A DNA stretch of 64,000 nucleotides, from the NCBI RefSeq assembly GCF_963921235.1, contig NW_026948141.1, positions 1 through 64,000 of the forward strand, written 5' to 3'. The position numbers and the translations under genes are program-made. The first letter of the stretch is position 1, and each line of letters begins with the position of its first letter. This DNA is from Mobula hypostoma. Taxonomy: Eukaryota. The notes under the pieces are model-generated. The model worked only from the letters and a program-made list of their open reading frames with translations. It was not told the origin of the DNA and did no database searches. Shown here piece by piece: positions 1 through 34,140 of this stretch.

Positions 1-3000
1 TGTGTGTCTGCCTGTCTTTGCATGTGTGTCTGCATGTCCGTGTGTGTGTGCGAGTCTGTGTCTGTGTGTGTCTGCCTGTCTGTGCATGTGTGTCTGCATG
101 TCCGTGTGTGTGTGCGAGTCTGTATGTGTGTGTGTCTGCGTGTCCGTATGTCCGCGCGAGTCTGTGCGCGTGTGTCTGCATGTCCGTGTGTGTGTGCGAG
201 TCTGTGTGTGTGTGTGTCTGCGTGTCCGTGTGTGTGTGCGAGTCTGTGCGTGTGTGTCTGCATGTCCGTGTGTGTGTGCGAGTCTGTGCGTATGTGTCTG
301 CGTGTCCGTGTGTCCGTGCGAGTCTGTGCGTGTGTGTCTGCGTGTCCGTGTGTGTGTGCGAGTCTGTGTGCGTGTGTGTCTGCGTGTCCGTGTGTCCGTG
401 CGAGTCTGTGCGTGTGTGTCTGCATGTCCGTGCGAGTCTGTGCGTGTGTGTCTGCATGTCCGTGTGTGTGTGCGAGTCTGTGCGTGTGTGTCTGCATGTC
501 CGTGTGTCCGTGCGAGTCTGTGCGTGTGTGTGTCTGCCTGTCTGTGCGTGTGTGTCTGCATGTCCGTGTGTGTGTGCGAGTCTGTGCGTGTGTGTCTGCC
601 TGTCTGTGCATGTGTGTCTGCATGTCCGTGTGTGTGTGCGAGTCTGTGCGTGTGTGTCTGCCTGTCTGTGCATGTGTGTCTGCATGTCCGTGTGTGTGTG
701 CGAGTCTGTGTCTGTGTGTGTCTGCTTGTCTGTGCATGTGTGTCTGCATGTCCGTGTGTGTGTGCGAGTCTGTATGCGTGTGTGTCTGCGTGTCCGTGTG
801 TGTGTGCGAGTCTGTGCGTGTGTGTCTGCGTGTCCGTGTGTGTGTGCGAGTCTGTGCGTGTGTATCTGCGTGTCCGTGTGTGTGTGCGAGTCTGTGCGTG
901 TGTGTCTGCATGTCCGTGTGTGTGTGCGAGTCTGTGCGTGTGTGTCTGCATGTCCGTGTGTCCGTGCGAGTCTGTGCGTGTGTGTGTCTGCCTGTCTGTG
1001 CATGTGTGTCTGCATGTCCGTGTGTGTGTGCGAGTCTGTGCGTGTGTGTCTGCCTGTCTTTGCATGTGTGTCTGCATGTCCGTGTGTGTGTGCGAGTCTG
1101 TGTCTGTGTGTGTCTGCTGTCTGTGCATGTGTGTCTGCATGTCCGTGTGTGTGTGCGAGTCTGTGTGTGTGTGTGTCTGCGTGTCCGTGTGTGTGTGCGA
1201 GTCTGTGCGTGTGTGTCTGCATGTCCGTGTGTGTGTGCGAGCCTGTGCGTGTGTGTCTGCATGTCCGTGTGTCCGTGCGAGTCTGTGCGTGTGTGTGTCT
1301 GCCTGTCTGTGCATGTGTGTCTGCATGTCCGTGTGTGTGTGCGAGTCTGTGCGTGTGTGTCTGCCTGTCTTTGCATGTGTGTCTGCATGTCCGTGTGTGT
1401 GTGCGAGTCTGTGTCTGTGTGTGTCTGCTGTCTGTGCATGTGTGTCTGCATGTCCGTGTGTGTGTGCGAGTCTGTGTGTGTGTGTGTCTGCGTGTCCGTG
1501 TGTGTGTGCGAGTCTGTGCGTGTGTGTCTGCATGTCCGTGTGTCCGCGCGAGTCTGTGCGCGTGTGTCTGCATGTCCGTGTGTGTGTGCGAGTCTGTGTG
1601 TGTGTGTCTCTGCGTGTCTGTGCGTGTGTGCGAGTCTGTGCGTGTGTGTGTCTGCGTGTCCGTGTGTGTGTGCGAGACTGTGCATGTGTGTCTGCGTGTC
1701 CGTGTGTCCGTGCGAGTCTGTGCGTGTGTGTCTGCGTGTCCGTGTGTGTGTGCGAGTCTGTGCGTGTGTTTCTGCATGTCCTTGTGTGTGTGCGAGTCTG
1801 TGCGTGTGTGTCTGTGTGTCCGTGTGTGTGTGCGAGTCTGTGCGTGTGTGTCTGCGTGTCCGTGTGTCCATGCGAGTCTGTGTGTGTGTGCCTGCGTGTC
1901 CGTGCATGCGTGCGAGTCTGTGCGTGTATGTCTGCGTGTCCGTGTGTGCTTGCGAGTCTGTGTGTGTGTGTCTGCGTGTCCGTATGTGTGTGCGAGTCTG
2001 TGCATGTGTGTCTGCGTGTCCGTGTGTCCGTGCGAGTCTGTGCGTGTGTGTCTGCATGTCCGTGTGTGTGTGCGAGTCTGTGCGTGTGTGTCTGCGTATC
2101 CGTGTGTCCGTGCGTGTCTGTGCGTGTGTGTCTGCGTGTCCATGTGTGTGTGCGAGTCTGTGCGTGTGTGTCTGCATGTCCGTGTGTGTGTGCAAGTCTG
2201 TGCGTGTGTGTCTGCGTGTCCGTGTGTCCGTGCGAGTCTGTGCGTGTGTGTCTGCGCCTCCGTGTGTGTGTGCGAGTCTGTGCGTGTGTGTCTGCGTGTC
2301 CGTGTGTGTGTGCAAGTCTGTGCGTGTGTGTCTGCGCGTCCGTGTGTGTGTGAGAGTCTGTGCGTGTGTGTCTGCACATCCGTGTGTGTGTGCGAGTCTG
2401 TGCGTGTGTGTCTGCGTGTCCGTGTGTGTGTGCGAGTCTGTGTCTGTGTGTGTCTGCCTGTCTGTGCATGTGTGTCTGCATGTCCGTGTGTGTGTGCGAG
2501 TCTGTATGTGTGTGTGTCTGCGTGTCCGTGTGTCCGCGCGAGTCTGTGCGCGTGTGTCTGCATGTCCGTGTGTGTGTGCGAGTCTGTGTGTGTGTGTGTC
2601 TGCGTGTCCGTGTGTGTGTGCGAGTCTGTGCGTGTGTGTCTGCGTGTCCGTGTGTGTGTGCGAGTCTGTGCGTGTGTGTCTGCGTGTCCGTTTGTGTGTG
2701 CAAGTCTGTGCGTGTGTGTCTGCGCGTCCGTGTGCGTGTGAGAGTCTGTGCGTGTGTGTCTGCACATCCGTGTGTGTGTGCGAGTCTGTGCGTGTGTGTC
2801 TGCGTGTCCGTGTGTGTGTGCGAGTCTGTGTGCGTGTGTGTCTGCGTGTCCGTGTGTCCGTGCGAGTCTGTGCGTGTGTGTCTGTGTGTCCGTGTCTCCG
2901 TGCGAGTCTGTGCTTGTGTGTCTGCGTGTCCGTGTGTGTGTGCGTTTCTGTGTGCGTGTGTGTCTGCGTGTCCATGTGTGTGTGGGAGTCTGTGCGTGTG

Positions 3001-6000
3001 CGTCTGCGTGTCCGTGTGTCCGTGCGAGTCTGTGCGTGTGTGTCTGTGTGTCCGTGTGTGTGTGCGAGTCTGTGCGTGTGTGTGTCTGCGTGTCCGTGTG
3101 TGTGTGAGAGTCTGTGCGTGTATGTCTGCATGTCCGTGTGTGTGTGCGAGTCTGTGCATGTGTGTCTGCATGTCAGTGTGTGTGTGCGAGTCTGTGTGTG
3201 TGTGTCTGCGTGTCCGTGTGTGTGTGCGAGTCTGTGCGTGTGTGTCTGCATGTCCGTGTGTCCGCGCGAGTCTGTGCGCGTGTGTCTGCGTGTCCGTGTG
3301 TCTGTGCGTGTCTGTACGTGTGTGTCTGCGTGTCCGTGTGTCTGCGCTAGTCTGTGCGCGTGTGTCTGCATGTCCGTGTGTGTGTGCGAGTCTGTGTGTG
3401 TGTGTGTCTGCGTGTCTGTGCGTGTGTGCGAGTCTGTGCGTGTGTGTGTCTGCGTGTCCGTGTGTCCGTGCATGTCTGTGCGTGTGTGTCTGCGTGTCCC
3501 TGTGTGTGTGCGAGTCTGTGCGTGTGTGTCTGCATGTCCGTGTGTCCGTGCGAGTCTGTGCGTGTGTGTGTCTGCCTGTCTGTGAATGTGTGTCTGCATG
3601 TCCGTGTGTGTGTGCGAGTCTGTGCGTGTGTGTCTGCCTGTCTTTGCATGTGTGTCTGCATGTCCGTGTGTGTGTGCGAGTCTGTGTCTGTGTGTGTCTG
3701 CCTGTCTGTGCATGTGTGTCTGCATGTCCGTGTGTGTGTGCGAGTCTGTATGTGTGTGTGTCTGCGTGTCCGTGTGTCCGCGCGAGTCTGTGCGCGTGTG
3801 TCTGCATGTCCGTGTGTGTGTGCGAGTCTGTGTGTGTGTGTCTGCGTGTCCGTGTGTGTGTGCGAGTCTGTGCGTGTGTGTCTGCATGTCCGTGTGTCCG
3901 CGCGAGTCTGTGCGCGTGTGTCTGCATGTCCGTGTGTGTGTGCGAGTCTGTGTGTGTGTCTCTGCGTGTCTGTGCGTGTGTGCGAGTCTGTGCGTGTGTG
4001 TCTGTGTGTCCGTGTGTGTGTGCGAGTCTGTGCGTGTGTGTCTGCCTGTCTTTGCATGTGTGTCTGCATGTCCGTGTGTGTGTGCGAGTCTGTGTCTGTG
4101 TGTGTCTGCCTGTCTGTGCATGTGTGTCTGCATGTCCGTGTGTGTGTGCGAGTCTGTGCGTGTGTGTCTGCGTATCCGTGTGTCCGTGCGAGTCTGTGCG
4201 TGTGTGTCTGCGTGTCCGTGTGTGTGTGCGAGTCTGTGCGTGTGTGTCTGCGTATCCGTGTGTCCGTGCGTGTCTGTGCGTGTGTGTCTGCGTGTCCATG
4301 TGTGTGTGCGAGTCTGTGCGTGTGTGTCTGCATGTCCGTGTGTGTGTGCAAGTCTGTGCGTGTGTGTCTGCGTGTCCGTGTGTCCGTGCGAGTCTGTGCG
4401 TGTGTGTCTGCGCCTCCGTGTGTGTGTGCGAGTCTGTGCGTGTGTGTCTGCGTGTCCGTTTGTGTGTGCAAGTCTGTGCGTGTGTGTCTGCGCGTCCGTG
4501 TGCGTGTGAGAGTCTGTGCGTGTGTGTCTGCACATCCGTGTGTGTGTGCGAGTCTGTGCGTGTGTGTCTGCGTGTCCGTGTGTGTGTGCGAGTCTGTGTG
4601 CGTGTGTGTCTGCGTGTCCGTGTGTCCGTGCGAGTCTGTGCGTGTGTGTCTGTGTGTCCGTGTCTCCGTGCGAGTCTGTGCTTGTGTGTCTGCGTGTCCG
4701 TGTGTGTGTGCGTTTCTGTGTGCGTGTGTGTCTGCGTGTCCTTGTGTGTGTGGGAGTCTGTGCGTGTGCGTCTGCGTGTCCGTGTGTCCGTGCGAGTCTG
4801 TGCGTGTGTGTCTGTGTGTCCGTGTGTGTGTGCGAGTCTGTGCGTGTGTGTGTCTGCGTGTCCGTGTGTGTGTGAGAGTCTGTGCGTGTATGTCTGCATG
4901 TCCGTGTGTGTGTGCGAGTCTGTGCATGTGTGTCTGCATGTCAGTGTGTGTGTGCGAGTCTGTGTGTGTGTGTCTGCGTGTCCGTGTGTGTGTGCGAGTC
5001 TGTGCGTGTGTGTCTGCATGTCCGTGTGTCCGCGCGAGTCTGTGCGCGTGTGTCTGCGTGTCCGTGTGTCTGTGCGAGTCTGTACGTGTGTGTCTGCGTG
5101 TCCGTGTGTCTGCGCTAGTCTGTGCGCGTGTGTCTGCATGTCCGTGTGTGTGTGCGAGTCTGTGTGTGTGTGTGTCTGCGTGTCTGTGCGTGTGTGCGAG
5201 TCTGTGCGTGTGTGTGTCTGCGTGTCCGTGTGTCCGTGCATGTCTGTGCGTGTGTGTCTGCGTGTCCCTGTGTGTGTGCGAGTCTGTGCGTGTGTGTCTG
5301 CATGTCCGTGTGTCCGTGCGAGTCTGTGCGTGTGTGTGTCTGCCTGTCTGTGAATGTGTGTCTGCATGTCCGTGTGTGTGTGCGAGTCTGTGCGTGTGTG
5401 TCTGCCTGTCTTTGCATGTGTGTCTGCATGTCCGTGTGTGTGTGCGAGTCTGTGTCTGTGTGTGTCTGCCTGTCTGTGCATGTGTGTCTGCATGTCCGTG
5501 TGTGTGTGCGAGTCTGTATGTGTGTGTGTCTGCGTGTCCGTGTGTCCGCGCGAGTCTGTGCGCGTGTGTCTGCATGTCCGTGTGTGTGTGCGAGTCTGTG
5601 TGTGTGTGTCTGCGTGTCCGTGTGTGTGTGCGAGTCTGTGCGTGTGTGTCTGCATGTCCGTGTGTCCGCGCGAGTCTGTGCGCGTGTGTCTGCATGTCCG
5701 TGTGTGTGTGCGAGTCTGTGTGTGTGTCTCTGCGTGTCTGTGCGTGTGTGCGAGTCTGTGCGTGTGTGTGTCTGCATGTCCGTGTGTGTGTGCGAGACTG
5801 TGCGTGTGTTTCTGCATGTCCGTGTGTGTGTGCGAGTCTGTGCGTGTGTGTCTGTGTGTCCGTGTGTGTGTGCGAGTCTGTGCGTGTGTGTCTGCGTGTC
5901 CGTGTGTCCATGCGAGTCTGTGTGTGTGTGCCTGCGTGTCCGTGCATGCGTGCGAGTCTGTGCGTGTATGTCTGCGTGTCCGTGTGTGCTTGCGAGTCTG

Positions 6001-9000
6001 TGTGTGTGTGTCTGCGTGTCCGTATGTGTGTGCGAGTCTGTGCATGTGTGTCTGCGTGTCCGTGTGTCCGTGCGAGTCTGTGCGTGTGTGTCTGCATGTC
6101 CGTGTGTGTGTGCGAGTCTGTGCGTGTGTGTCTGCGTATCCGTGTGTCCGTGCGTGTCTGTGCGTGTGTGTCTGCGTGTCCATGTGTGTGTGCGAGTCTG
6201 TGCGTGTGTGTCTGCATGTCCGTGTGTGTGTGCGAGTCTGTGCGTGTGTGTCTGCGTGTCCGTGTGTCCGTGAGAGTCTGTGCGTGTGTGTCTGCGCCTC
6301 CGTGTGTGTGTGCGAGTCTGTGCGTGTGTGTCTGCGTGTCTGTGTGTGTGTGCAAGTCTGTGCGTGTGTGTCTGCGCGTCCGTGTGTGTGTGAGAGTCTG
6401 TGCGTGTGTGTCTGCACGTCCGTGTGTGTGTGCGAGTCTGTGCGTGTGTGTCTGCGTGTCCGTGTGTGTGTGCGAGTCTGTGCTTGTGTGTCTGCGTGTC
6501 CGTGTGTGTGTGCGAGTCTGTGTGCGTGTGTGTCTGCGTGTCCGTGTGTCCGTGCGAGTCTGTGCGTGTGTGTCTGTGTGTCCGTGTCTCCGTGCGAGTC
6601 TGTGCTTGTGTGTCTGCGTGTCCGTGTGTGTGTGCGTTTCTGTGTGCGTGTGTGTCTGCGTGTCCATGTGTGTGTGGGAGTCTGTGCGTGTGCGTCTGCG
6701 TGTCCGTGTGTCCGTGCGAGTCTGTGCGTGTGTGTCTGTGTGTCCGTGTCTCCGTGCGAGTCTGTGCTTGTGTGTCTGCGTGTCCGTGTGTCCGTGCGAG
6801 TCTGTGCGTGTGTGTCTGTGTGTCTGTGTGTGTGTGCGAGTCTGTGCGTGTATGTCTGCATGTCCGTGTGTGTGTGCAAGTCTGTGCATGTGTGTCTGCA
6901 TGTCCGTATGTGTGTGCGAGTCTGTGTGTGTGTGTGTCTGCGTGTCCGTGTGTGTGTGCGAGTCTGTGCGTGTGTGTCTGCATGTCCGTGTGAGTCTGTG
7001 CGCGTGTGTCTGCATGTCCGTGTGTCTGTGCGACTCTGTACGTGTGTGTCTGCATGTCCGTGTGTCTGCGCTAGTCTGTGCGCGTGTGTCTGCATGTCCG
7101 TGTGTGTGTGCGAGTCTGTGTGTGTGTGTGTCTGCGTGTCTGTGCGTGTGTGCGAGTCTGTGCGTGTGTGTGTCTGCGTGTCCGTGTGTGTGTGCGAGAC
7201 TGTGCGTGTGTGTCTGCGTGTCCGTGTGTCCGTGCGAGTCTGTGCGTGTGTGTCTGCGTGTCCGTGTGTGTGTGCGAGTCTGTGCGTGTGTTTCTGCATG
7301 TCCGTGTGTGTGTGCGAGTCTGTGCGTGTGTGTCTGTGTGTCCGTGTGTGTGTGCGAATCTGTGCGTGTGTGTCTGCGTGTCCGTGTGTCCATGCGAGTC
7401 TGTGTGTGTGTGCCTGTGTGTCCGTGCATGCGTGCGAGTCTGTGCGTGTATGTCTGCGTGTCCGTGTGTGCGTGCGAGTCTGTGTGTGTGTGTCTGCGTG
7501 TCCGTATGTGTGTGCGAGTCTGTGCATGTGTGGCTGCGTGTCCGTGTGTGTGTGCGAGTCTGTGCGTGTGTGTCTGCATGTCCGTGTGTCTGCGCGAGTC
7601 TGTGCGCGTGTGTCTGCGTGTCCGTGTGTCTGTGCGAGTCTGTACGTGTGTGTCTGCGTGTCCGTGTGTCCGCGCTAGTCTGTGCGCGTGTGTGTGCGTG
7701 TCCGTGTGTGTGTGCGAGTCTGTGTGTGTGTGTCTGCATGTCCGTGTGTGTGTGCGAGTCTGTGCGTGTGTGTCTGCGTGTCCGTGTGTGTGTGCGAGTC
7801 TGTGCGTGTGTGTCTGCATGTCCGTGTGTGTGTGCGAGTCTGTGTGTGTGTGTGTCTGCATCTCCGTGTGTGTGTGCGAGTCTGTGCGTGTGTGTGTCTG
7901 CATGTCCGTGTGTGTGTGCGAGTCTGTGCGTGTGTGTCTGCATGTCCATGTGTGTGTGCGAGTCTGTGCGTGTGTGTGTTTGCGTGTCCGTGTGTGTGTG
8001 CGAGTCTGTGTCTGTGTGTCTGCGTGTCTGTGTGTCCGTGCGAGTCTGTGCGTGTGTGTCTGCATGTCCGTGTGTCCGCGCGAGTCTGTGCGCGTGTGTC
8101 TGCATGTCCGTGTCTGTGTGCGAGTCTGTGCGTGTGTGTCTGCATGTCCGTGTGTGTGTGCGAGTCTGTGCGTGTGTGTCTGCATGTCCGTGTGTCCGTG
8201 CGAGTTTGTGCGTGTGTGTGTCTGCCAGTCTGTGTGTGTGTGTCTGCATGTCCGTGTGTGTGTGCGAGTCTGTGCGTGTGTGTGTCTGCGTGTCTGTGCG
8301 TGTGTGCGAGTCTGTGCGTGTGTGTGTCTGCGTGTCCGTGTGTGTGTGCGAGTCTGTGCGTGTGTGTCTGCGTGTCCGTGTGTGTGTTCGAGTCTGTGCG
8401 TGTGTATCTGCGTGTCCATGTGTGTGTGCGAGTCTGTGCGTGTGTGTCTGCCTGTCCGTGTGTGTGTGCGAGTCTGTGCATGTGTATCTGCATGTCCGTG
8501 TGTGTGTGCGAGTCTGTGCGTGTGTGTCTGCATGTCCGTGTGTCCGTGCGAGTCTGTGCGTGTGTGTCTGCGTGTCTGTGCGTGTGTGTCTGTGTGTCCG
8601 TGTGTGTTTGAGGGTCTGTGCGTGTGTGTCTGCGTGTCCGTGTGTGTGTGCGAGTCTGTGCGTGTGTGTCTGCGTGTCCGTGTGTCCGTGCGAGTCTGTG
8701 CGTGTGTGTCTGCGTGTCCGTGTGTGTGTGCGAGTCTGTGCGTGTGTGTCTGCGTGTCCGTGTGTCCGTGCGAGTCTGTGCGTGTGTGTCTGCGTGTCCG
8801 TGTGTGTGTGAGGGTCTGTGCGTGTGTGTCTGCGTGTCCGTGTGTGTGTGCGAGTCTGTGCGTGTGTGTCTGCGTGTCCGTGTGTCCGTGCGAGTTTGTG
8901 CGTGTGTGTCTGCGTGTCTGTGTGTCCGTCCGAGTCTGTGCGTGTGTGTCTGCGTGTCCGTGTGTGTGTGCGAGTCTGTGTGCGGGTGTGTCTGCGTGTC

Positions 9001-12000
9001 CGTGTGTCCGTGCGAGTCTGTGCGTGTGTGTCTGCATGTCCGTGTGTGTGTGCGAGTCTGTGCGTGTGTGTCTGCGTGTCCGTGTGTCCGTGTGAGTCTG
9101 TGCGTGTGTCTGCGTGTCCATGTGTGTGTGCGAGTCTGTGTGTGTGTGTCTGCGTGTCCGTATGTGTGTGCGAGTCTGTGCATGTGTGTCTGCGTGTCCG
9201 TGTGTCCGTGCGAGTCTGTGCGTGTGTGTCTGCATGTCCGTGTGTGTGTGCGAGTCTGTGCGTGTGTGTCTGCGTGTCCGTCTGTCCGTGTGAGTCTGTG
9301 CGTGTGTGTCTGTGTGTCCATGTGTGTGTGCGAGTCTGTGCGTGTGTGTCTGCATGTCCGTGTGTGTGTGCGAGTCTGTGCGTGTGTGTCTGCGTGTCCG
9401 TGTGTCCGTGCGAGTCTGTGCGTGTGTGTCTGCGTCTCCGTGTGTGTGTGCGAGTCTGTGCGTGTGTGTCTGCGTGTCCGTGTGTGTGTGCGAGTCTGTG
9501 CGTGTGTGTCTGCGCGTCCGTGTGTGTGTGAGAGTCTGTGCGTGTGTGTCTGCACGTCCGTGTGTCTGTGCGAGTCTGTGCGTGTGTGTCTGCGTGTCCG
9601 TGTGTGTGTGCGAGTCTGTGCTTGTGTGTCTGCGTGTCTGTGTGTGTGTGCGAGTCTGTGTGCGTGTGTGTCTGCGTGTCCGTGTGTCTGTGCGAGTCTG
9701 TGCGTGTGTGTCTGTGTGTCCGTGTCTCCGTGCGAGTCTGTGCTTGTGTGTCTGCGTGTCCGTGTGTGTGTGCGTTTCTGTGTGCGTGTGTGTCTGCATG
9801 TCCATGTGTGTGTGGGAGTCTGTGCGTGTGTGTCTGCGTGTCCGTGTGTCCGTGCGAGTCTGTGCGCGTGTGTCTGCGTGTCCGTGTGTGTGTGCGAGTC
9901 TGTGCGTGTGTGTCTGCATGTCCGTGTGTGTGTGCGAGTCTGTGCGTGTGTGCGTGTCCGTGTGTGTGTGCGAGTCTGTGCGTGTGTGTCTGCATGTCCG
10001 TGTGTGTGTGCGAGTCTGTGTGTGTGTGTGTCTGCATCTCCGTGTGTGTGTGCGAGTCTGTGCGTGTGTGTGTCTGCGTGTCCGTGTGTGTGTGCGAGTC
10101 TGTGCGTGTGTGTCTGCATGTCCATGTGTGTGTGCGAGTCTGTGCGTGTGTGTGTTTGCGTGTCCGTGTGTGTGTGCGAGTCTGTGTGTGTGTGTGTCTG
10201 CGTGTCCGTGTGTCCGTGCGAGTCTGTGCGTGTGTGTCTGCATGTCCGTGTGTCCGCGCGAGTCTGTGCGCGTGTGTCTGCATGTCCGTTTCTGTGTGCG
10301 AGTCTGTGCGTGTGTGTCTGCATGTCCGTGTGTGTGTGCGAGTCTGTGCGTGTGTGTCTGCATGTCCGTGTGTCCGTGCGAGTTTGTGCGTGTGTGTGTC
10401 TGCCTGTCTGTGCGTGTGTGTCTGCATGTCCGTGTGTGTGTGCGAGTCTGTGCGTGTGTGTGTCTGCGTGTCTGTGCGTGTGTGCGAGTCTGTGCGTGTG
10501 TGTGTCTGCGTGTCCGTGTGTGTGTGCGAGTCTGTGCGTGTGTGTCTGCGTGTCCGTGTGTGTGTGCGAGTCTGTGCGTGTGTATCTGCGTGTCCATGTG
10601 TGTGTGCGAGTCTGTGCGTGTGTGTCTGCCTGTCCGTGTGTGTGTGCGAGTCTGTGCATGTGTATCTGCATGTCCGTGTGTGTGTGCGAGTCTGTGCGTG
10701 TGTGTCTGCATGTCCGTGTGTCCGTGCGAGTCTGTGCGTGTGTGTCTGCGTGTCTGTGCGTGTGTGTCTGTGTGTCCGTGTGTGTTTGAGGGTCTGTGCG
10801 TGTGTGTCTGCGTGTCCGTGTGTGTGTGCGAGTCTGTGCGTGTGTGTCTGCGTGTCCGTGTGTCCGTGCGAGTCTGTGCGTGTGTGTCTGCGTGTCCGTG
10901 TGTGTGTGCGAGTCTGTGCGTGTGTGTCTGCGTGTCCGTGTGTCCATGCGAGTCTGTGCGTGTGTGTCTGCGTGTCCGTGTGTGTGTGAGGGTCTGTGCG
11001 TGTGTGTCTGCGTGTCCGTGTGTGTGTGCGAGTCTGTGCGTGTGTGTCTGCGTGTCCGTGTGTCCGTGCGAGTTTGTGCGTGTGTGTCTGCGTGTCCGTG
11101 TGTGTGTGCGAGTCTGTGCGTGTGTGTCTGCGTGTCCGTGTGTCCGTGCGAGTTTGTGCGTGTGTGTCTGCGTGTCTGTGTGTCCGTCTGAGTCTGTGCG
11201 TGTGTGTCTGCATGTCCGTGTGTGTGTGCGAGTCTGTGTGCGGGTGTGTCTGCGTGTCCGTGTGTCCGTGCGAGTCTGTGCGTGTGTGTCTGCATGTCCG
11301 TGTGTCCGTGCGAGTCTGTGCGTGTGTGTCTGCGTGTCCGTGTGTGTGTGCGAGTCTGTGTGTGTGTGTGTCTGCCTGTCTGTGCATGTGTGTCTGCGTG
11401 TCCGTGTGTGTGTGCAAGTTTGTGGGTGTGTGTCTGCGTGTCCGTGTGTGTGTGCTAGTCTGTGTGCGTGTGTGTCTGCGTGTCCGTGTGTCCGTGCGAG
11501 TCTGTGCGTGTGTGTCTGCATGTCCGTGTGTCCGTGCGAATCTGTGCGTGTGTGTCTGCATGTCCGTGTGTCCGTGCGAGTTTGTGCGTGTGTGTGTCTG
11601 CCTGTCTGTGCGTGTGTGTCTGCATGTCCGTGTGTGTGTGCGAGTCTGTGCGTGTGTGTCTGCGTGTCTGTGCGTGTGTGCGAGTCTGTGCGTGTGTGTG
11701 TCTGCGTGTCCGTGTGTGTGTGCGAGTCTGTGCGTGTGTGTCTGCGTGTCCGTGTGTGTGTGCGAGTCTGTGCGTGTGTATCTGCGTGTCCGTGTGTGTG
11801 TGCGAGTCTGTGCATGTGTGTCTGCATGTCCGTGTGTGTGTGCGAGTCTGTGCGTGTGTATCTGCATGTCCGTGTGTGTGTGCGAGTCTGTGCGTGTGTG
11901 TCTGCATGTCCGTGTGTCCGTGCGAGTCTGTGCGTGTGTGTCTGCGTGTCTGTGCGTGTGTGTCTGTGTGTCCGTGTGTGTGTGAGGGTCTGTGCGTGTG

Positions 12001-15000: not shown

Positions 15001-18000
15001 TGTCAGTGTGTCCGTGCGAGTCTGTGCGTGTGTGTCTGCGTGTCCGTGTGTGTGTGCGAGTCTGTGTGTGTGTGTGTCTGCCTGTCTGTGCATGTGTGTC
15101 TGCGTGTCCGTGTGTGTGTGCGAGTCTGTGCGTGTGTGTCTGCGTGTCCGTGTGTGTGTACGAGTCTGTGCGTGTGTGTCTGCGTGTCCGTGTGTGTGTA
15201 TGAGTCTGTGCGTGTGTGTCTGCGTGTCCGTGTGTGTGTGCGAGTCTGTGCGTGTGTGTCTGCGTGTCCGTGTGTCCGTGCGAGTCTGTGCGTGTGTGTC
15301 TGCCTGTCCGTGTGTGTGTGCTAGTCTGTGTGCTTGTGTGTCTGCGTGTCCGTGTGTGTGTGCTAGTCTGTGTGCGTGTGTGTCTGCGTGTCCGTGTGTC
15401 CGTGCGAGTCTGTGCGTGTGTGTCTGCATGTCCGTGTGTCCGTGCGAATCTGTGCGTGTGTGTCTGCATGTCCGTGTGTCCGTGCGAGTTTGTGTGTGTG
15501 TGTGTCTGCCTGTCTGTGCGTGTGTGCGAGTCTGTGCGTGTGTGTGTCTGCGTGTCCGTGTGTGTGTGCGAATCTGTGTGTGTGTGTCTGCGTGTCCGTG
15601 TGTGTGTGCGAGTCTGTGCGTGTGTGTCTGCGTGTCCGTGTGTGTGTGCGAGTCTGTGCGTGTGTTTCTGCGTGTCCGTGTGTGTGTGCGAGTCTGTGCG
15701 TGTGTGTCTGCATGTCCGTGTGTGTGTGCGAGTCTGTTCGTGTGTATCTGCATGTCCGTGTGTGTGTGCGAGTCTGTGCGTGTGTGTCTGCATGTCCGTG
15801 TGTCCGTGCGAGTCTGTGCGTGTGTGTCTGCGTGTCTGTGCGTGTGTGCGAGTCTGTGTGTGTGTGTGTCTGCGTGTCCGTGTGTGTGTGCGAGTCTGTG
15901 CGTGTGTGTGTCTGCGTGTCTGTGTGTGTGTGCTAGTCTGTGTGCGTGTGTGTCTGCGTGTCCGTGTGTCCGTGCGAGTCTGTGCGTGTGTGTCTGCATG
16001 TCCGTGTGTCCGTGCGAATCTGTGCGTGTGTGTCTGCATGTCCGTGTGTCCGTGCGAGTTTGTGCGTGTGTGTGTCTGCCTGTCTGTGCGTGTGTGTCTG
16101 CATGTCCGTGTGTGTGTGCGAGTCTGTGCGTGTGTGTGTCTGCGTGTCTGTGCGTGTGTGCGAGTCTGTGCGTGTGTGTGTCTGCGTGTCCGTGTGTGTG
16201 TGCGAGTCTGTGCGTGTGCGTCTGCGTGTCCGTGTGTGTGTGCGAGTCTGTGCGTGTGTTTCTGCGTGTCCGTGTGTGTGTGCGAGTCTGTGCGTGTGTG
16301 TCTGCATGTCCGTGTGTGTGTGCGAGTCTGTGCGTGTGTATCTGCATGTCCGTGTGTGTGCGCGAGTCTGTGCGTGTGTGTCTGCATGTCCGTGTGTCCG
16401 TGCGAGTCTGTGCGTGTGTGTGTCTGCGTGTCTGTGTGTGTGTGCTAGTCTGTGTGCGTGTGTGTCTGCGTGTCCGTGTGTCCGTGCGAGTCTGTGCGTG
16501 TGTGTCTGCATGTCCGTGTGTCCGTGCGAATCTGTGCGTGTGTGTCTGCATGTCCGTGTGTCCGTGCGAGTTTGTGCGTGTGTGTGTCTGCCTGTCTGTG
16601 CGTGTGTGTCTGCATGTCCGTGTGTGTGTGCGAGTCTGTGCGTGTGTGTGTCTGCGTGTCTGTGCGTGTGTGCGAGTCTGTGCGTGTGTGTGTCTGCGTG
16701 TCCGTGTGTGTGTGCGAGTCTGTGCGTGTGCGTCTGCGTGTCCGTGTGTGTGTGTGAGTCTGTGCGTGTGTTTCTGCGTGTCCGTGTGTGTGTGCGAGTC
16801 TGTGCGTGTGTCTGCATGTCCGTGTGTGTGTGCGAGTCTGTGCGTGTGTATCTGCATGTCCGTGTGTGTGTGCGAGTCTGTGCGTGTGTGTCTGCATGTC
16901 CGTGTGTCCGTGCGAGTCTGTGCGTGTGTGTCTGCGTGTCTGTGCGTGTGTGCGAGTCTGTGTGTGTGTGTGTCTGCGTGTCCGTGTGTGTGTGCGAGTC
17001 TGTGCGTGTGTGTCTGCATGTCCGTGTGTCCGTGCGAGTCTGTGCGTGTGTGTCTGCATGTCCACGTGTGTGTGCGAGCCTGTGCGTGTGTGTGTCTGCG
17101 TGTCTGTGCATGTGTGCGAGTCTGTGCGTGTGTGTCTGCATGTCCGTGTGTCCGTGCGAGTCTGTGCGTGTGTGTCTGCGTGTCCGTGTGTGTGTGAGAG
17201 TCTGTGTGTGTGTGTGTCTGCGCGTCCGTGTGTGTGTGAGAGTCTGTGCGTGTGTGTCTGCACGTCCGTGTGTGTGTGCGAGTCTGTGCGTGTGTGTCTG
17301 CGTGTCCGTGTGTGTGTGCGAGTCTGTGCTTGTGTGTCTGCGTGTCCGTGTGTGTGTGCGAGTCTGTGTGCGTGTGTGTCTGCGTGTCCGTGTATCCGTG
17401 CGAGTCTGTGCGTGTGTGTCTGTGTGTCCGTGTCTCCGTGCGAGTCTGTGCTTGTGTGTCTGCGTGTCCGTGTGTGTGTGCGTTTCTGTGTGCGTGTGTG
17501 TCTGCGTGTCCATGTGTGTGTGGGAGTCTGTGCGTGTGTGTCTGCGTGTCCGTGTGTCCGTGCGAGTCTGTGCGTGTGTATCTGCGTGTCCGTGTGTGTG
17601 TGCGAGTCTGTGCATGTGTGTCTGCTTGTCCGTGTGTGTGTGCGAGTCTGTGCGTGTGTGTCTGCATGTCCGTGTGTCCGTGCGACTCTGTGCGTGTGTG
17701 TGTCTGCCTGTCTGTGCATGTGTGTCTGCATGTCCGTGTGTGTGTGCGAGTCTGTGTCTGTGTGTGTCTGCCTGTCTGTGCATGTGTGTCTGCATGTCCG
17801 TGTGTGTGTGCGAGTCTGTATGTGTGTGTGTCTGCGTGTCCGTGTGTCCGCACGAGTCTGTGCGCGTGTGTCTGCATGTCCGTGTGTGTGTGCGAGTCTG
17901 TGTGTGTGTGCGAGTCTGTGCGTGTGTGCGTGTCCGTGTGTGTGTGCGAGTCTGTGCGTGTGTGTCTGCATGTCCGTGTGTGTGTGCGAGTCTGTGTGTG

Positions 18001-21000: not shown

Positions 21001-24000
21001 TGTGTGCGAGTCTGTGCGTGTGTGTCTGCGTGTCCGTGTGTGTGTGCGAGTCTGTGCGTGTGTATCTGCATGTCCGTGTGTGTGTGCGAGTCTGTGCGTG
21101 TGTGTCTGCATGTCCCTGTGTGTGTGCGAGTCTGTGCGTGTGTGTCTGCATGTCCGTGTGTCCGTGCGAGTCTGTGCGTGTGTGTGTCTGCCTGTCTGTG
21201 CATGTGTGTCTGCATGTCCGTGTGTGTGTGCGAGTCTGTGCGTGTGTGTCTGCCTGTCTTTGCATGTGTGTCTGCATGTCCGTGTGTGTGTGCGAGTCTG
21301 TGTCTGTGTGTGTCTGCCTGTCTGTGCATGTGTGTCTGCATGTCCGTGTGTGTGTGCGAGTCTGTGTGTGTGTGTGTCTGCGTGTCCGTGTGTGTGTGCG
21401 AGTCTGTGCGTGTGTGTCTGCATGTCCGTGTGTCCGCGCGAGTCTGTGCGCGTGTGTCTGCATGTCCGTGTGTGTGTGCGAGTCTGTGTGTGTGTGTCTC
21501 TGCGTGTCTGTGCGTGTGTGCGAGTCTGTGCGTGTGTGTGTCTGCGTGTCCGTGTGTGTGTGCGAGACTGTGCATGTGTGTCTGCGTGTCCGTGTGTCCG
21601 TGCGAGTCTGTGCGTGTGTGTCTGCGTGTCCGTGTGTGTGTGCGAGTCTGTGCGTGTGTTTCTGCATGTCCGTATGTGTGTGCGAGTCTGTGCGTGTGTG
21701 TCTGCGTGTCCGTGTGTCCATGCGAGTCTGTGTGTGTGTGCCTGCGTGTCCGTGCATGCGTGCGAGTCTGCGCGTGTATGTCTGCGTGTCCGTGTGTGCT
21801 TGCGAGTCTGTGTGTGTGTGTCTGCGTGTCCGTGTGTGTGCGAGTCTGTGCATGTGTGTCTGCGTGTCCGTGTGTCCGTGCGAGTCTGTGCGTGTGTGTC
21901 TGCATGTCCGTGTGTGTGTGCGAGTCTGTGCGTGTGTGTCTGCGTATCCGTGTGTCCGTGCGTGTCTGTGCGTGTGTGTCTGCGTGTCCATGTGTGTGTG
22001 CGAGTCTGTGCGTGTGTGTCTGCATGTCCGTGTGTGTGTGCGAGTCTGTGCGTGTGTGTCTGCGTGTCCGTGTGTCCGTGCGAGTCTGTGCGTGTGTGTC
22101 TGCGCCTCCGTGTGTGTGTGCGAGTCTGTGCGTGTGTGTCTGCGTGTCCGTATGTGTGTGCAAGTCTGTGCGTGTGTGTCTGCGCGTCCGTGTGTGTGTG
22201 CGAGTCTGTGCGTGTGTGTCTGTGTGTCCGTGTGTGTGTGCGAGTCTGTGTGCGTGTGTGTATGCGTGTCCGTGTGTCCGTGCGAGTCTGTGCGTGTGTG
22301 TCTGCGCCTCCGTGTGTGTGTGCGAGTCTGTGCGTGTGTGTCTGCGTGTCCGTATGTGTGTGCAAGTCTGTGCGTGTGTGTCTGCGCGTCCGTGTGTGTG
22401 TGCGAGTCTGTGCGTGTGTGTCTGCGTGTCCGTGTGTGTGTGCGAGTCTGTGTGCGTGTGTGTATGCGTGTCCGTGTGTGTGTGCGAGTCTGTGCGTGTG
22501 TGTCTGTGTGTCCGTGTCTCCGTGCGAGTCTGTGCTTGTGTGTCTGCGTGTCCGTGTGTGTGTGCGTTTCTGTGTGCGTGTGTGTCTGCGTGTCCATGTG
22601 TGTGTGGGAGTCTGTGCGTGTGCGTCTGCGTGTCCGTGTGTCCGTGCGAGTCTGTGCGTGTGTGTCTGTATGTCCGTGTGTGTGTGCGAGTCTGTGCGTG
22701 TGTGTGTCTGCGTGTCCGTGTGTGTGTGAGAGTCTGTGCGTGTATGTCTGCATGTCCGTGTGTGTGTGCGAGTCTGTGCATGTGTGTCTGCATGTCCGTG
22801 TGTGTGTGCGAGTCTGTGTGTGTGTGTGTCTGCGTGTCCGTGTGTGTGTGCGAGTCTGTGCGTGTGTGTCTGCATGTCCGTGTGTCCGCGCGAGTCTGTG
22901 CGCGTGTGTCTGCGTGTCCGTGTGTCTGTGCGAGTCTGTACGTGTGTGTCTGCGTGTCCGTGTGTCTGCGCTAGTCTGTGCGCGTGTGTCTGCATGTCCG
23001 TGTGTGTGTGCGAGTCTGTGTGTGTGTGTGTCTGCGTGTCTGTGCGTGTGTGCGAGTCTGTGCGTGTGTGTCTGCGTATCCGTGTGTCCGTGCGTGTCTG
23101 TGCGTGTGTGTCTGCGTGTCCATGTGTGTGTGCGAGTCTGTGCGTGTGTGTCTGCATGTCGTGCGTGTGTGCGAGTCTGTGCGAGTGTGTCTGCGTGTCC
23201 GTGTGTCCGTGAGAGTCTGTGTGTGTGTGTCTGCGCCTCCGTGTGTGTGTGAGAGTCTGTGCGTGTGTGTCTGCGTGTCTGTGTGTGTGTGCAAGTCTGT
23301 GCGTGTGTGTCTGCGCGTCCGTGTGTGTGTGAGAGTCTGTGCGTGTGTGTCTGCACGTCCGTGTGTGTGTGCGAGTCTGTGCGTGTGTGTCTGCGTGTCC
23401 GTGTGTGTGTGCGAGTCTGTGCTTGTGTGTCTGCGTGTCCGTGTGTGTGTGCGAGTCTGTGTGCGTGTGTGTCTGCGTGTCCGTGTGTCCGTGCGAGTCT
23501 GTGCGTGTGTGTCTGTGTGTCCGTGTCTCCGTGCGAGTCTGTGCTTGTGTGTCTGCGTGTCCGTGTGTGTGTGCGTTTCTGTGTGCGTGTGTGTCTGCGT
23601 GTCCGTGTGTGTGTGCGAGTCTGTGCGTGTGTGTCTGCGTGTCCGTGTGTCCGTGCGAGTCTGTGCGTGTGTGTCTGTGTGTCCGTGTCTCCGTGCGAGT
23701 CTGTGCTTGTGTGTCTGCGTGTCCGTGTGTGTGTGCGTTTCTGTGTGCGTGTGTGTCTGCGTGTCCATGTGTGTGTGGGAGTCTGTGCGTGTGCGTCTGC
23801 GTGTCCGTGTGTCCGTGCGATTCTGTGCGTGTGTGTCTGTGTGTCCGTGTGTGTGTGCGAGTCTGTGCGTGTGTGTGTCTGCGTGTCCGTGTGTGTGTGC
23901 GAGTCTGTGCGTGTATGTCTGCATGTCCGTGTGTGTGTGCGAGTCTGTGCATGTGTGTCTGCATGTCCGTGTGTGTGTGCGAGTCTGTGTGTGTGTGTGT

Positions 24001-27000
24001 CTGCGTGTCCGTGTGTGTGTGCGAGTCTGTGCGTGTGTGTCTGCATGTCCGTGTGAGTCTGTGCGCGTGTGTCTGCGTGTCCGTGTGTCTGTGCGAGTCT
24101 GTACGTGTGTGTCTGCGTGTCCGTGTGTCTGCGCTAGTCTGTGCATGTGTGTCTGCATGTCCGTGTGTGTGTGCGAGTCTGTGTGTGTGTGTGTCTGCGT
24201 GTCTGTGCGTGTGTGCGAGTCTGTGCGTGTGTGTGTCTGCGTGTCCGTGTGTGTGTGCGAGACTGTGCGTGTGTGTCTGCGTGTCCGTGTGTCCGTGCGA
24301 GTCTGTGCGTGTGTGTCTGCTTGTCCGTCTGTGTGTACGAGTCTGTGCGTGTGTTTCTGCATGTCCGTGTGTGTGTGCGAGTCTGTGCGTGTGTGTCTGT
24401 GTGTCCGTGTGTGTGTGCGAATCTGTGCGTGTGTGTCTGCGTGTCCGTGTGTACATGCGAGTCTGTGTGTGTGTGCCTGTGTGTCCGTGCATGCTTGCGA
24501 GTCTGTGCGTGTATGTCTGCGTGTCCGTGTGTGCGTGCGAGTCTGTGTGTGTGTGTCTGCGTGTCCGTATGTGTGTGCGAGTCTGTGCATGTGTGGCTGC
24601 GTGTCCGTGTGTGTGTGCGAGTCTGTGCGTGTGTGTCTGCATGTCCGTGTGTCCGCGCGAGTCTGTGCGCGTGTGTCTGCGTGTCTGTGTGTCTGTGCGA
24701 GTCTGTACGTGTGTGTCTGCGTGTCCGTGTGTCCGCGCTAGTCTGTGCGCGTGTGTCTGCGTGTCCGTGTGTGTGTGCGAGTCTGTGTGTGTGTGTCTGC
24801 ATGTCCGTGTGTGTGTGCGAGTCTGTGCGTGTGTGTCTGCGTGTCCGTGTGTGTGTGCGAGTCTGTGCGTGTGTGTCTGCATGTCCGTGTGTGTGTGCGA
24901 GTCTGTGTGTGTGTGTGTCTGCATCTCCGTGTGTGTGTGCGAGTCTGTGCGTGTGTGTGTCTGCGTGTCCATGTGTGTGTGCGAGTCTGTGCGTGTGTGT
25001 CTGCATGTACATGTGTGTGTGCGAGTCTGTGCGTGTGTGTGTCTGCGTGTCCGTGTGTGTGTGCGAGTCTGTGCGTGTGTGTCTGCATGTCCATGTGTGT
25101 GTGCGAGTCTGTGCGTGTGTGTGTTTGCGTGTCCGTGTGTGTGTGCGAGTCTGTGTGTGTGTGTGTCTGCGTGTCCGTGTGTCCGTGCGAGTCTGTGCGT
25201 GTGTGTCTGCATGTCCGTGTGTCCGCGCGAGTCTGTGCGCGTGTGTCTGCATGTCCGTGTCTGTGTGCGAGTCTGTGCGTTTGTGTCTGCATGTCCGTGT
25301 GTGTGTGCGAGTCTGTGCGTGTGTGTCTGCATGTCCGTGTGTCCGTGCGAGTTTGTGCGTGTGTGTGTCTGCCTGTCTGTGCGTGTGTGTCTGCATGTCC
25401 GTGTGTGTGTGCGAGTCTGTGCGTGTGTGTGTCTGCGTGTCTGTGCGTGTGTGCGAGTCTGTGCGTGTGTGTGTCTGCGTGTCCGTGTGTGTGTGCGAGT
25501 CTGTGCGTGTGTGTCTGCGTGTCCGTGTGTGTGTGCGAGTCTGTGCGTGTGTATCTGCGTGTCCATGTGTGTGTGCGAGTCTGTGCGTGTGTGTCTGCCT
25601 GTCCGTGTGTGTGTGCGAGTCTGTGCATGTGTATCTGCATGTCCGTGTGTGTGTGCGAGTCTGTGCGTGTGTGTCTGCATGTCCGTGTGCCCGTGCGAGT
25701 CTGTGCGTGTGTGTCTGCGTGTCTGTGCGTGTGTGTCTGCGTGTCCGTGTGTGTGTGCGAGTCTGTGCGTGTGTGTCTGCGTGTCCGTGTGTCCGTGCGT
25801 GTCTGTGCGTGTGTGTCTGCGTGTCCGTGTGTGTGTGCGAGTCTGTGCGTGTGTGTCTGCGTGTCCGTGTGTCCGTGCGAGTCTGTGCGTGTGTGTCTGC
25901 GTGTCCGTGTGTGTGTGAGGGTCTGTGCCTGTGTGTCTGCGTATCCGTGTGTGTGTGCGAGTCTGTGCGTGTGTGTCTGCGTGTCCGTGTGTCCGTGCGA
26001 GTTTGTGCGTGTGTGTCTGCGTGTCTGTGTGTCCGTCCGAGTCTGTGCGTGTGTGTCTGCGTGTCCGTGTGTGTGTGCGAGTCTGTGTGCGGGTGTGTCT
26101 GCGTGTCCGTGTGTCCGTGCGAGTCTGTGCGTGTGTGTCTGCATGTCCGTGTGTCCGTGCGAGTCTGTGCGTGTGTGTCTGCGTGTCCGTGTGTGTGTGC
26201 GAGTCTGTGTGTGTGTGTGTCTGCCTGTCTGTGCATGTGTGTCTGCGTGTCCGTGTGTGTGTGCGAGTCTATGTGTGTGTGTGTGTCTGTATGTCCGTGT
26301 GTGTGTGCAAGTCTGTGGGTGTGTGTCTGCGTGTCCGTGTGTGTGTGCTAGTCTGTGTGCGTGTGTGTCTGCGTGTCCGTGTGTCCGTGCGAGTCTGTGC
26401 GTGTGTGTCTGCATGTCCGTGTGTCCGTGCGAATCTGTGCGTGTGTGTCTGCATGTCCGTGTGTCCGTGCGAGTTTGTGCGTGTGTGTGTCTGCCTGTCT
26501 GTGCGTGTGTGTCTGCATGTCCGTGTGTGTGTGCGAGTCTGTGCGTGTGTGTGTCTGCGTGTCTGTGCGTGTGTGCGAGTCTGTGCGTGTGTGTGTCTGC
26601 GTGTCCGTGTGTGTGTGCGAGTCTGTGCGTGTGTGTCTGCGTGTCCGTGTGTGTGTGCGAGTCTGTGTGTGTGTGTCTGCGTGTCCGTGTGTCCGTCCGA
26701 GTCTGTGCGTGTGTGTCTGCGTGTCCGTGTGTGTGTGCGAGTCTGTGTGCGGGTGTGTCTGCGTGTCCGTGTGTCCGTGCGAGTCTGTGCGTGTGTGTCT
26801 GCATGTCAGTGTGTCCGTGCGAGTCTGTGCGTGTGTGTCTGCCTGTCCGTGTGTGTGTGCTAGTCTGTGTGCGTGTGTGTCTGCGTGTCCGTGTGTGTGT
26901 GCTAGTCTGTGTGCGTGTGTGTCTGCGTGTCCGTGTGTCCGTGCGAGTCTGTGCGTGTGTGTCTGCATGTCCGTGTGTCCGTGCGAATCTGTGCGTGTGT

Positions 27001-29085
27001 GTCTGCATGTCCGTGTGTCCGTGCGTGTTTGTGTGTGTGTGTGTCTGCCTGTCTGTGCGTGTGTGTCTGGATGTCCGTGTGTGTGTGCGAGTCTGTGCGT
27101 GTGTGTGTCTGCGTGTCTGTGCGTGTGTGCGAGTCTGTGCGTGTGTGTGTCTGCGTGTCCGTGTGTGTGTGCGAATCTGTGTGTGTGTGTCTGCGTGTCC
27201 GTGTGTGTGTGCGAGTCTGTGCGTGTGTGTCTGCGTGTCCGTGTGTGTGTGCGTGTCTGTGCGTGTGTTTCTGCGTGTCCGTGTGTGTGTGCGAGTCTGT
27301 GCGTGTGTGTCTGCATGTCCGTGTGTGTGTGCGAGTCTGTTCGTGTGTATCTGCATGTCCGTGTGTGTGTGCGAGTCTGTGCGTGTGTGTCTGCATGTCC
27401 GTGTGTCCGTGCGAGTCTGTGCGTGTGTGTCTGCGTGTCTGTGCTTGTGTGCGAGTCTGTGTGTGTGTGTGTCTGCGTGTCCGTGTGTGTGTGCGAGTCT
27501 GTGCGTGTGTGTGTCTGCGTGTCTGTGTTTGTGTGCTAGTCTGTGTGGGTGTGTGTCTGCGTGTCCGTGTGTCCGTGCGAGTCTGTGCGTGTGTGTCTGC
27601 GTGTCCGTGTGTCCGTGCGAATCTGCGCGTGTGTGTCTGCATGTCCGTGTGTCCGTGCGAGTTTGTGCGTGTGTGTGTCTGCCTGTCTGTGCGTGTGTGT
27701 CTGCATGTCCGTGTGTGTGTGCGAGTCTGTGCGTGTGTGTGTCTGCGTGTCTGTGCGTGTGTGCGAGTCTGTGCGTGTGTGTGTCTGCGTGTCCGTGTGT
27801 GTGTGCGAGTCTGTGCGTGTGTGTCTGCGTGTCCGTGTGTGTGTGCGAGTCTGTGCGTGTGTTTCTGCGTGTCCGTGTGTGTGTGCGAGTCTGTGCGTGT
27901 GTGTCTGCATGTCCGTGTGTGTGTGCGAGTCTGTGCGTGTGTATCTGCATGTCCGTGTGTGTGTGCGAGTCTGTGCGTGTGTGTCTGCATGTCCGTGTGT
28001 CCGTGCGAGTCTGTGCGTGTGTGTCTGCGTGTCTGTGCGTTTGTGCGAGTCTGTGTGTGTGTGTGTCTGCGTGTCCGTGTGTGTGTGCGAGTCTGTGCGT
28101 GTGTGTCTGCATGTCCGTGTGTCCGTGCGAGTCTGTGCGTGTGTGTCTGCATGTCCACGTGTGTGTGCGAGCCTGTGCGTGTGTGTGTCTACGTGTCTGT
28201 GCATGTGTGCGAGTCTGTGCGTGTGTGTCTGCATGTCCGTGTGTCCGTGCGAGTCTGTGCGTGTGTGTCTGCGTGTCCGTGTGTGTGTGAGAGTCTGTGT
28301 GTGTGTGTGTCTGCGTGTCCGTGTGTGTGTGCGAGTCTGTGCGTGTGTGTCTGCGTGTCCGTGTGTCCGTGCGAGACTGTGCGTGTGTGTCTGCGTGTCC
28401 GTGTGTGTGTGCTAGTCTGTGTGCGTGTGTGTCTGCGTGTCCGTGTGTCCGTGCGAGTCTGTGCGTGTGTGTCTGCATGTCCGTGTGTCCGTGCGAATCT
28501 GTGCGTGTGTGTCTGCATGTCCGTGTGTCCGTGCGAGTTTGTGCGTGTGTGTGTCTGCCTGTCTGTGTGTGTGTGTCTGCATGTCCGTGTGTGTGTGCGA
28601 GTCTGTGCGTGTGTGTGTCTGCGTGTCTGTGCGTGTGTGCGAGTCTGTGCGTGTGTGTGTCTGCGAGTCTGTGCGTGTGTATCTGCATGTCCGTGTGTGT
28701 GTCTGCATGTCCGTGTGTCCGTGCGAGTCTGTGCGTGTGTGTCTGCGTGTCTGTGCGTGTGTGCGAGTCTGTGTGTGTGTGTGTCTGCGTGTCCGTGTGT
28801 GTGTGCGAGTCTGTGCGTGTGTGTCTGCATGTCCGTGTGTCTGTGCGAGTCTGTGCGTGTGTGTCTGCATGTCCACGTGTGTGTGCGAGCCTGTGCGTGT
28901 GTGTTTCTGCGTGTCTGTGCATGTGTGCGAGTCTGTGCGTGTGTGTCTGCGTGTCCGTGTGTGTGTGAGAGTCTGTGTGTGTGTGTGTCTGCGTGTCCGT
29001 GTGTGTGTGCGAGTGTGTGCGTGTGTGTCTGCGTGTCTGTGCGTGTGTGCGAGTCTGTGTGTGTGTGTGTGTCTGCATGTCTGTT
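1..29085. repeat. GT-rich 40-bp minisatellite/satellite array, about 730 units, continues past the left edge
   Basis: Consensus unit TGCGAGTCTGTGCGTGTGTGTCTGCGTGTCCGTGTGTGTG repeats throughout. Variants include gcgt/gcat and gtgtg/gtccg, with mostly even-length indels. The + strand is nearly devoid of A. Confidence 0.99.
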
Positions 29086-29316
29086 CGTGCATCCGTGATA
29101 ATGTCTTTTTTTTTCATGGCTTTTAACAAGGCACGCCACTCCTCTCACAGACATTTTTGCAGGCTTTTCCCTTTATTTTACGAGGTTGAGTTGCGATCTC
29201 GACACTCAACCCGGCACGGATGGAAAGCGCACTCAGGAGCGGACCCGACTAGTTTTGAACCCGGGAACCTCCGCTCCCAGGTCTGGCGCCGATGTCGTTG
29301 CGCCACCAGCCGGCCC
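29086..29316 (-). mobile_element. tRNA-derived SINE whose 3' tail runs into the 40-bp array
   Basis: Minus strand reads GGGCCGGCTGGTGGCGCAACG (A-box-like), then GGTTCAAAAC (B box, 29252-29261), an 8-bp hairpin (29184-29211), an A-rich stretch, and ATCACGGATGCACGAACAGACATGCAGACACACAC grading into the satellite. Confidence 0.8.
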
Positions 29317-29478
29317 AGTTCTAACTAACCTGATTGAGTGTTTTGATAAGGTGTTGAGAGTGATAGATGAAAGGAGAGCTGCGGATGTTGTCTACGTGGG
29401 TTTTCGAAAGGCGTTTAACAAGTCCCTCATGGGAGGCTCAACCAGAAAATTAAAATGCATCGGCTTCAGAGAAGAAGT

Positions 29479-33339: not shown

Positions 33340-34140
33340 GATAAAGGAGCGTGAGTCGGCCATCCGGCCCATCGAGCCTGCCTCGCCATTCAATAAGGTC
33401 ATGGCTGATCTGTCCGTAAACTCAGCTCCATCTGCCTGCCTTTTCCCCATAACCCTTAATTCCCTTACTATGTATGATGCAACACAGAGCGTCATAGGAA
33501 GTCATTCCTGCCTGTGGCCATCAAACTTTACAACTTTACTTAAATATATTTAGTGAAGAAGCCTCAGCTGCTTCCCTGGGCAGAGAATTCCACAGATTCA
33601 CCACTCTCTGGTAAAAACAGTTTCTCCTCATCTCCGTCCTAAATCTTCTCCCCTGAATCTTGAGGCAATGTCCCCTCGTTCTAGTCTCACCTACCAATGG
33701 AAACAACTTTCCTACTTTTATCTTATCTATCCCTTTCAGAATTTTGTCTGTTTCTGTAAGATCCTCTCTCATTTTTCTGAACTCCAGAGAGTATAGTCCC
33801 AGGCGACTCAATCTCTCCTCATAGGTTAACCCCTTCATCCCTGGAATTAACCTGGTGAACCTCCTCTGCACTGCCTCCAAAGCCAGTATATCCTTCCTCA
33901 AGTATGGAGACCAGAACTGCACACAGTACTCCAGGTCCGGCCTCACCAGTACCCTGTATAGTTTCAGCATGACCTCCCTGCTCTTGAATTCAGTCCCTCT
34001 AGCAATGAAGGCCAACATTCCGTTTGCCTTCTTAATAACTTGTTGTACCTGCAAGCCAACTTTTTGCAATTCATGAACAGGCACTATCAAGTCCCTCTGC
34101 ACAACAACATGCTGCAATCTTTCACCATTTAAATAATAAC
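33340..34140 (-). mobile_element. CR1 LINE 3' part carrying a 60-bp foreign patch at 33476-33535
   Basis: ORF 33536-34153 KKANGMLAFIARG...LEYCVQFWSPYLRKD...QRVVNLWNSLP. Confidence 0.93.

Follow-up and report, generated by a model that had tools for sequence, protein, structure and literature searches.

A tandem array of a 40-bp CA-rich unit in the ray Mobula hypostoma probably grew from the 3′ tail of a single SINE copy. The array occupies the first 29 kb of the window (i.e., the whole 64,000-nucleotide stretch of DNA analyzed here), begins at the 3′ tail of the SINE, and runs in the same orientation as the element. This origin had been put forward in a sequence-only reading of the locus, and it is upheld by two lines of evidence: a seamless, graded junction between the SINE and the array and the matching tail of an independent copy of the same SINE family. 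The array is neutral, locus-grown satellite DNA, and nothing has been found that points to a function or a phenotype. The features of the locus are collected in Table 1.

Table 1. Features of the SINE, its flank, and the 40-bp array, in window coordinates
Feature	Position	Strand	Basis
Array of the 40-bp CA-rich composite unit, ~727 units, one orientation	1–29085	−	TRF, length count
Distal array, a mosaic recently copied from the proximal 12 kb	1–17140	−	Tile matching
SINE-proximal array, rich in private variants	23080–29080	−	26 of 57 events in 6 of 29 kb
Beginning of the SINE tail, passing gradually into the array without a spacer or a final poly-A at this end	29080–29097	−	20-mer distances
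tRNA-type SINE, head and body	29098–29316	−	A-box-like word, B box, contig evidence
SINE landmarks	A-box-like word 29307; B box 29261; A9 run near 29106–29114	−	
Old LINE reverse-transcriptase fragment, presumably CR1-type	29317–29470	+	Adjoins the SINE 5′ end; matches two LINE copies of the window

On the minus strand, the SINE continues into the 40-bp unit without a spacer, as the sequence-only reading had described. The passage from one to the other is gradual: successive 20-mers come ever closer to the interior of the array, with Hamming distances of 8 (29114), 4 (29098), 2 (29088), and finally 0 (29080). The related proposal, that the words of the tail are the building blocks of the unit, stands in part. 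The 26-mer at 29101–29076 is array-like, with a score that is reached by 2 of 300 shuffles, but the CACGGA-bearing 16-mer at 29101–29086 is not significantly array-like on its own (it is equaled or outscored by 32 of 300 shuffles).

The SINE is represented once within the window. Its A-box-like word and B box lie 46 nt apart, a tRNA-like spacing typical of RNA polymerase III promoters, and the canonical B box results when the family-majority base is placed at 29256. ARAGORN detects no tRNA at this decayed copy, and Rfam returns four matches, all below the gathering score and none on the SINE. The element has been compared with public contig sets at 85% likeness, with 29000–29085 left out of the comparison. 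Matching contigs number 6185 in run X1 (organism A) and 5195 and 5273 in runs X5 and X7 (organism B), respectively; for organism D (run X10), 81 contigs are matched, none of them on the SINE body. The 5′ end is placed at 29316/7, where 126 and 64 X1 contigs diverge into unrelated flanks with an agreement of 0.4. The SINE family is thus a short, dispersed, and high-copy family in two organisms, with a common 5′ end. Elements of the tRNA-derived type also tend to share their 3′ end with a partner LINE.

The window copy itself is, judging from its divergence, an old and dead one because it departs from the family majority at no fewer than 9 of 128 positions (29163–29290). It also has an internal deletion of ~39 nt relative to a second Mobula copy, seen as a 13-residue gap against the protein XP_062928622.1. 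Most family copies part from the window SINE at 29165–29176 (70 and 43 loose ends in X1), which suggests that the family either comprises subfamilies whose 3′ halves differ or contains a variable linker.

The second Mobula copy is known at the protein level. A search of the antisense open frame of the SINE against 1.84 billion proteins gives seven hits, one of which is strong: XP_062928622.1, an uncharacterized Mobula hypostoma gene model (LOC134359387), with an E value of 3.4e-15. The other six are unrelated low-complexity matches. The matched model consists of an antisense LINE, an antisense copy of the window SINE family, the resumed LINE, and another repeat; being built of antisense repeats, the protein model appears spurious. 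When its LINE flanks are mapped on a LINE copy of the window, they overlap by ~7 nt (43040–43046), as would the two sides of a target-site duplication, here deduced from protein. The SINE of this model has a 27-codon (81-nt) CA-rich tail followed by an A-rich end.

The relation of this tail to the array has been assessed as the fewest substitutions with which the array can encode the tail peptide, the null being dinucleotide shuffles of each unit in 3000 trials. The distal 14 codons (42 nt), a segment selected post hoc after inspection, are 2–3 substitutions away from four of the six commonest 40-mers. Equally good fits are obtained in 13, 0, 5, and 1 of 3000 shuffles of these four units; for the other two units, the counts are 1669 and 466, and the fit is not significant. 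When the 14-codon window is allowed to slide, the corresponding values are 16, 1, 11, and 1 of 3000 for four of five units and 2259 for the fifth. With segments of 10, 12, and 16 codons, the two units harboring a second CGGA word are equaled by 5–40 of 3000 shuffles, as compared with 97–508 for the two units that lack it. A pure (TG)n repeat requires seven substitutions for the 14-codon segment.

Other forms of the comparison speak against the match. The whole 27-codon tail, ungapped, shows no significant fit (466–2841 of 3000, a range that includes the two weak units), and neither does the proximal 13-codon part. If the entire 29-kb array is shuffled, the best single-site fit is equaled in 13 of 100 shuffles. 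The BLOSUM score of the tail peptide against the consensus array is below the null (74 vs 82), and this scoring is uninformative as it is dominated by cysteines. The tail comparison as a whole concerns one copy at the protein level in an automated gene model; its codons are deduced from amino acids, and the tail may contain a splice junction. On this good, although not final, evidence, about one 40-bp unit was probably already present in the tail of the SINE family before amplification.

The contig data give a second line of evidence on other tails. Contigs that include the tail-adjacent segment, in which the A-run is shorter, number 5, 11, and 10 in X1, X5, and X7, respectively. The depth at 29085–29101 is 142, 217, and 228 in the same runs versus 15, 5, and 6 for the contig of the locus, values that are summed depths and not copy numbers. 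Together with the one complete tail seen at the protein level, these contigs favor the expectation, checked in part, that other SINE copies bear array-type tails, and do not refute it. Pattern scans for further copies of the SINE found none in viral or metagenome contigs, and two hits in bacterial genome contigs are taken as chance matches. Word-indexed protein searches yield no additional copy beyond XP_062928622.1; 16 protein hits to the translation of the array, which lack the SINE words, are generic CA-rich translations.

The match between tail and unit gives by itself no direction, and the flow of sequence could have been the reverse. The 40-mer would then be an older dispersed satellite, a piece of which was taken up by the SINE master through read-through, which would account for the matching tails of the family, and the array would have been joined to the present copy via shared sequence; alternatively, the present locus would be the donor. 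RNA polymerase III terminates at runs of T. The SINE-sense strand has no run of four Ts from 29316 to 1, so that the polymerase could read from the SINE through 29 kb of array. However, a copy as decayed as the window SINE, and ~39 nt shorter than its relative, is an unlikely donor, and a reverse flow of this kind is on the whole improbable.

The flank of the SINE bears on its insertion. Its 5′ end adjoins a LINE fragment that matches LINE copies of the window at 58867–58709 and 43150–43049, and which we take to be CR1; Pfam gives no hit for a 51-aa piece of this fragment. Pieces of 6–14 nt from the 5′ flank of the SINE do not recur inside the array; therefore, no target-site duplication is present in the window. 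A contig of organism B covers the junction between SINE and flank (29293–29449) with two differences, which suggests that the insertion may be shared with this organism, its SINE side being 24 letters long, below the 31 required.

Farther along the plus strand are two probable exons, 37432–37519 and 50951–51010, with AG/GT ends, compatible phases, and a leucine-rich-repeat-like translation; the pair may belong to an LRRC56-like gene. The array may sit within an intron because a simple motif scan for an upstream exon between the SINE and 37432 found none.

The position of the SINE also bears on a chance landing, in which the element would have inserted beside a CA-rich array already in place and the resemblance between tail and unit would be convergence of low-complexity sequences. 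CA-rich composite repeats do arise independently, as exemplified by a stickleback gene model that matches the translation of the array with an E value of 4.5e-33 and has no SINE words, and the CACGGA 16-mer taken alone is, as noted above, not significant. Against such a chance landing, the other side of the SINE is CR1 rather than array, poly-A is absent between the tail and the array, and the tail of a separate insertion fits the unit better than do shuffles of the unit dinucleotides. A fortuitous landing is therefore very unlikely, and growth of the array from the tail is the preferred explanation.

TRF reports a single array at 1–29075 with a period of 40 and 715.5 copies, and the count by length is 727 (29085/40). 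The roughly 730-fold amplification proposed in the sequence-only reading is thereby confirmed as a lower bound, the array running off the window at base 1. The units are assembled from sub-blocks of 8, 10, 14, and 18 nt, and their words are strictly one-directional (728 vs 0, 503 vs 0, and 670 vs 0). Variants in (CA)n length, and one that reflects CpG decay, are evenly distributed along the array. Units of odd length are rare (4 of 761 pieces, the SINE end being one of them), and the array contains neither a run of four or more As nor an insertion. The CpG content is ~250–270 per 3 kb, and alternating purine–pyrimidine runs of at least 12 nt make up 46% of the array. Open frames of up to 4007 codons, which could mislead gene finders, are rejected as genes; T constitutes only 4% of the strand.

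The array is not uniform along its length. The terminal 400 nt at the SINE end are 91.5% identical to the consensus, as compared with a mean of 93.6% (sd 1.2), and rank joint second lowest among 72 tiles (three tiles at or below). The description of the terminal units as the most degenerate thus holds only mildly by identity and is better reflected in the private variants, which crowd the SINE end (Table 1), a pattern to be anticipated at the oldest and least homogenized edge. The final ~130 nt at this end closely resemble no other part of the array. Each of the 42 tiles of the distal 17 kb has a counterpart in the proximal 12 kb, with a mean identity of 98.2% and a rank correlation of positions (rho) of 0.75. 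Gap-free duplicated blocks of 1790 nt (99.5% identity, lag 2790), 1410 nt (99.6%, lag 1768), and 1185 nt (98.4%, lag 17063) show that the array grew in kilobase steps. If decay rates are comparable, these blocks would be younger than the SINE insertion, which is ~7% decayed.

An assembly artefact, in which the SINE tail was misjoined to a foreign array or the array was inflated through shared CA-rich sequence, is highly improbable: 99.5% identical blocks of 1.4–1.8 kb are difficult to assemble, and the contig comparison, which skipped 29000–29085, showed no contig across the junction, but the passage from SINE to array is gradual, the ~130 nt nearest the SINE are unique in the array, private variants increase toward the SINE, and odd unit lengths are confined to the few pieces counted above.

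The growth of the array from the SINE tail can be pictured as follows. A tRNA-type SINE of the ray would have inserted at or into the old CR1 fragment, and the far side of the array should accordingly bear the upstream continuation of the fragment that the SINE interrupted. The inserted element would have carried a CA-rich 3′ tail of ~80 nt, with one 40-bp composite word between short (CA)n-like repeats, and tails across the SINE family would carry a CAGACTCGC-type word. Slippage or unequal exchange between the short flanking repeats may have doubled the 40-mer, a step modeled on the general scheme in PMC6947457. From a few tandem copies, unequal exchange would have enlarged the array to at least 29 kb; here, the mechanism is inferred, and the block pattern is shown. 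The latest growth would have proceeded in blocks of 0.5–3 kb plus one or more steps of at least 10 kb. The earlier proposal that a CA-rich tail became the 40-bp unit is thus retained as regards the origin in the tail and revised as regards the unit, which was probably ready-made, in one copy, in the tail of the family and not built at this locus.

Several known systems resemble the ray array. Squamate SINE-derived satellites (sSats) contain as many as 320 and almost 950 units at single loci, according to Vassetzky, Kosushkin, and Ryskov (2023; PMC10702118). The same study describes units of 70–290 nt taken from the SINE proper, whether from its 5′, its middle, or its 3′ portion, a similarity of ~94% within the longest cobra locus, and locus-specific subvariants; its authors set tail repeats aside as simple and neither abundant nor widespread (PMC10702118). 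sSats also occur at several loci of a genome and are biased toward subtelomeres. The ray array is like an sSat in being a tandem array of hundreds of units that arose from part of one SINE copy, and its ~727 units exceed the four middle units that define an sSat locus. In contrast to sSats, its unit is 40 nt long and tail-derived, outside the 70–290 nt of SINE proper.

The CCTG repeat of myotonic dystrophy type 2 (DM2) originated in an Alu poly(A) tail and comprises 75–11,000 units, extending over tens of kilobases (Kurosaki et al. 2012; PMC3378579). Like the ray array, it starts from the 3′ tail of a single SINE and follows the orientation of the element. However, DM2-type repeats have units of 2–6 nt that formed from poly(A) after insertion, whereas the ray unit is a 40-nt composite that apparently pre-existed in the tail. 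Short orthologous alleles in related species are a further feature of DM2-type repeats. Smaller arrays are the mouse (GGCAGA)n minisatellites from B1 SINEs (Bois 1998) and human Alu-derived minisatellites (Jurka and Gentles 2006), both as listed in PMC6947457. As given there, their units are 6–8 nt long, in contrast to 40 nt in the ray. The mouse (GGCAGA)n minisatellites form a multi-locus family, and the ray array is seen at one locus.

The ray array is therefore a retroelement-derived tandem array, a large and clear instance of a broad and known kind, and is filed under neither sSats nor DM2-type repeats because both the size and the origin of its unit differ from those of either group. The view that its expansion goes far beyond typical tail cases is not sustained, given the ~950–1000 units of snake sSats and the 11,000 CCTG units from an Alu tail. 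Retroelement-seeded arrays of such size are already known, and the new detail is the ready-made 40-bp unit in the tail. A literature search, which had most subscription journals and supplements outside its reach, returned no account of the ray SINE or of the 40-bp array.

The window holds further repeats. An array of 91 units of 33 bp (95% matches) at 51649–54655 lies inside a dispersed repeat and is the second retroelement-internal array in the 64 kb. Its two flanks, together with one of its units, can be aligned to one unamplified copy at ~40997–41133, which continues at 41534–41768. This second case counts in favor of local growth of the 40-bp array. A 72/73-bp array of ~13 units at 34871–35817 flips its orientation at ~35518, forming a long imperfect palindrome; no dispersed parent for it is found within the window, and Rfam microRNA matches in this interval fall below the gathering score. 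A 60-nt stretch is 100% identical at 33476–33535 and 61995–62054, 28 kb apart, in repeat copies that are otherwise 65–85% alike.

The locus offers a worked example of how a dispersed repeat turns into satellite DNA: one place shows the seed, the element that carried it, and the block duplications that followed, and the unamplified seed apparently persists, at the protein level, in another SINE copy. The parts of SINEs known to reach satellite size now include the 3′ tail, here as a 40-bp composite unit. A broader, rather doubtful possibility is that the SINE family, with its ready-made 40-bp proto-minisatellite tail, seeds multi-kilobase arrays at many of the thousands of places where it has inserted. 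Since the tail strand lacks a polymerase III terminator, expanded tails could also be read through and re-exported as longer tails, forming a SINE–satellite cycle. If the family does seed arrays, the birth of satellites could be timed along the natural series of copies with one unit, a few units, and hundreds. The 40-mer and 33-mer arrays together suggest that short sequences of many kinds are amplified in this genome, a tendency that may be relevant to the richness in tandem repeats of some ray genomes (10.1101/2025.06.08.657570).
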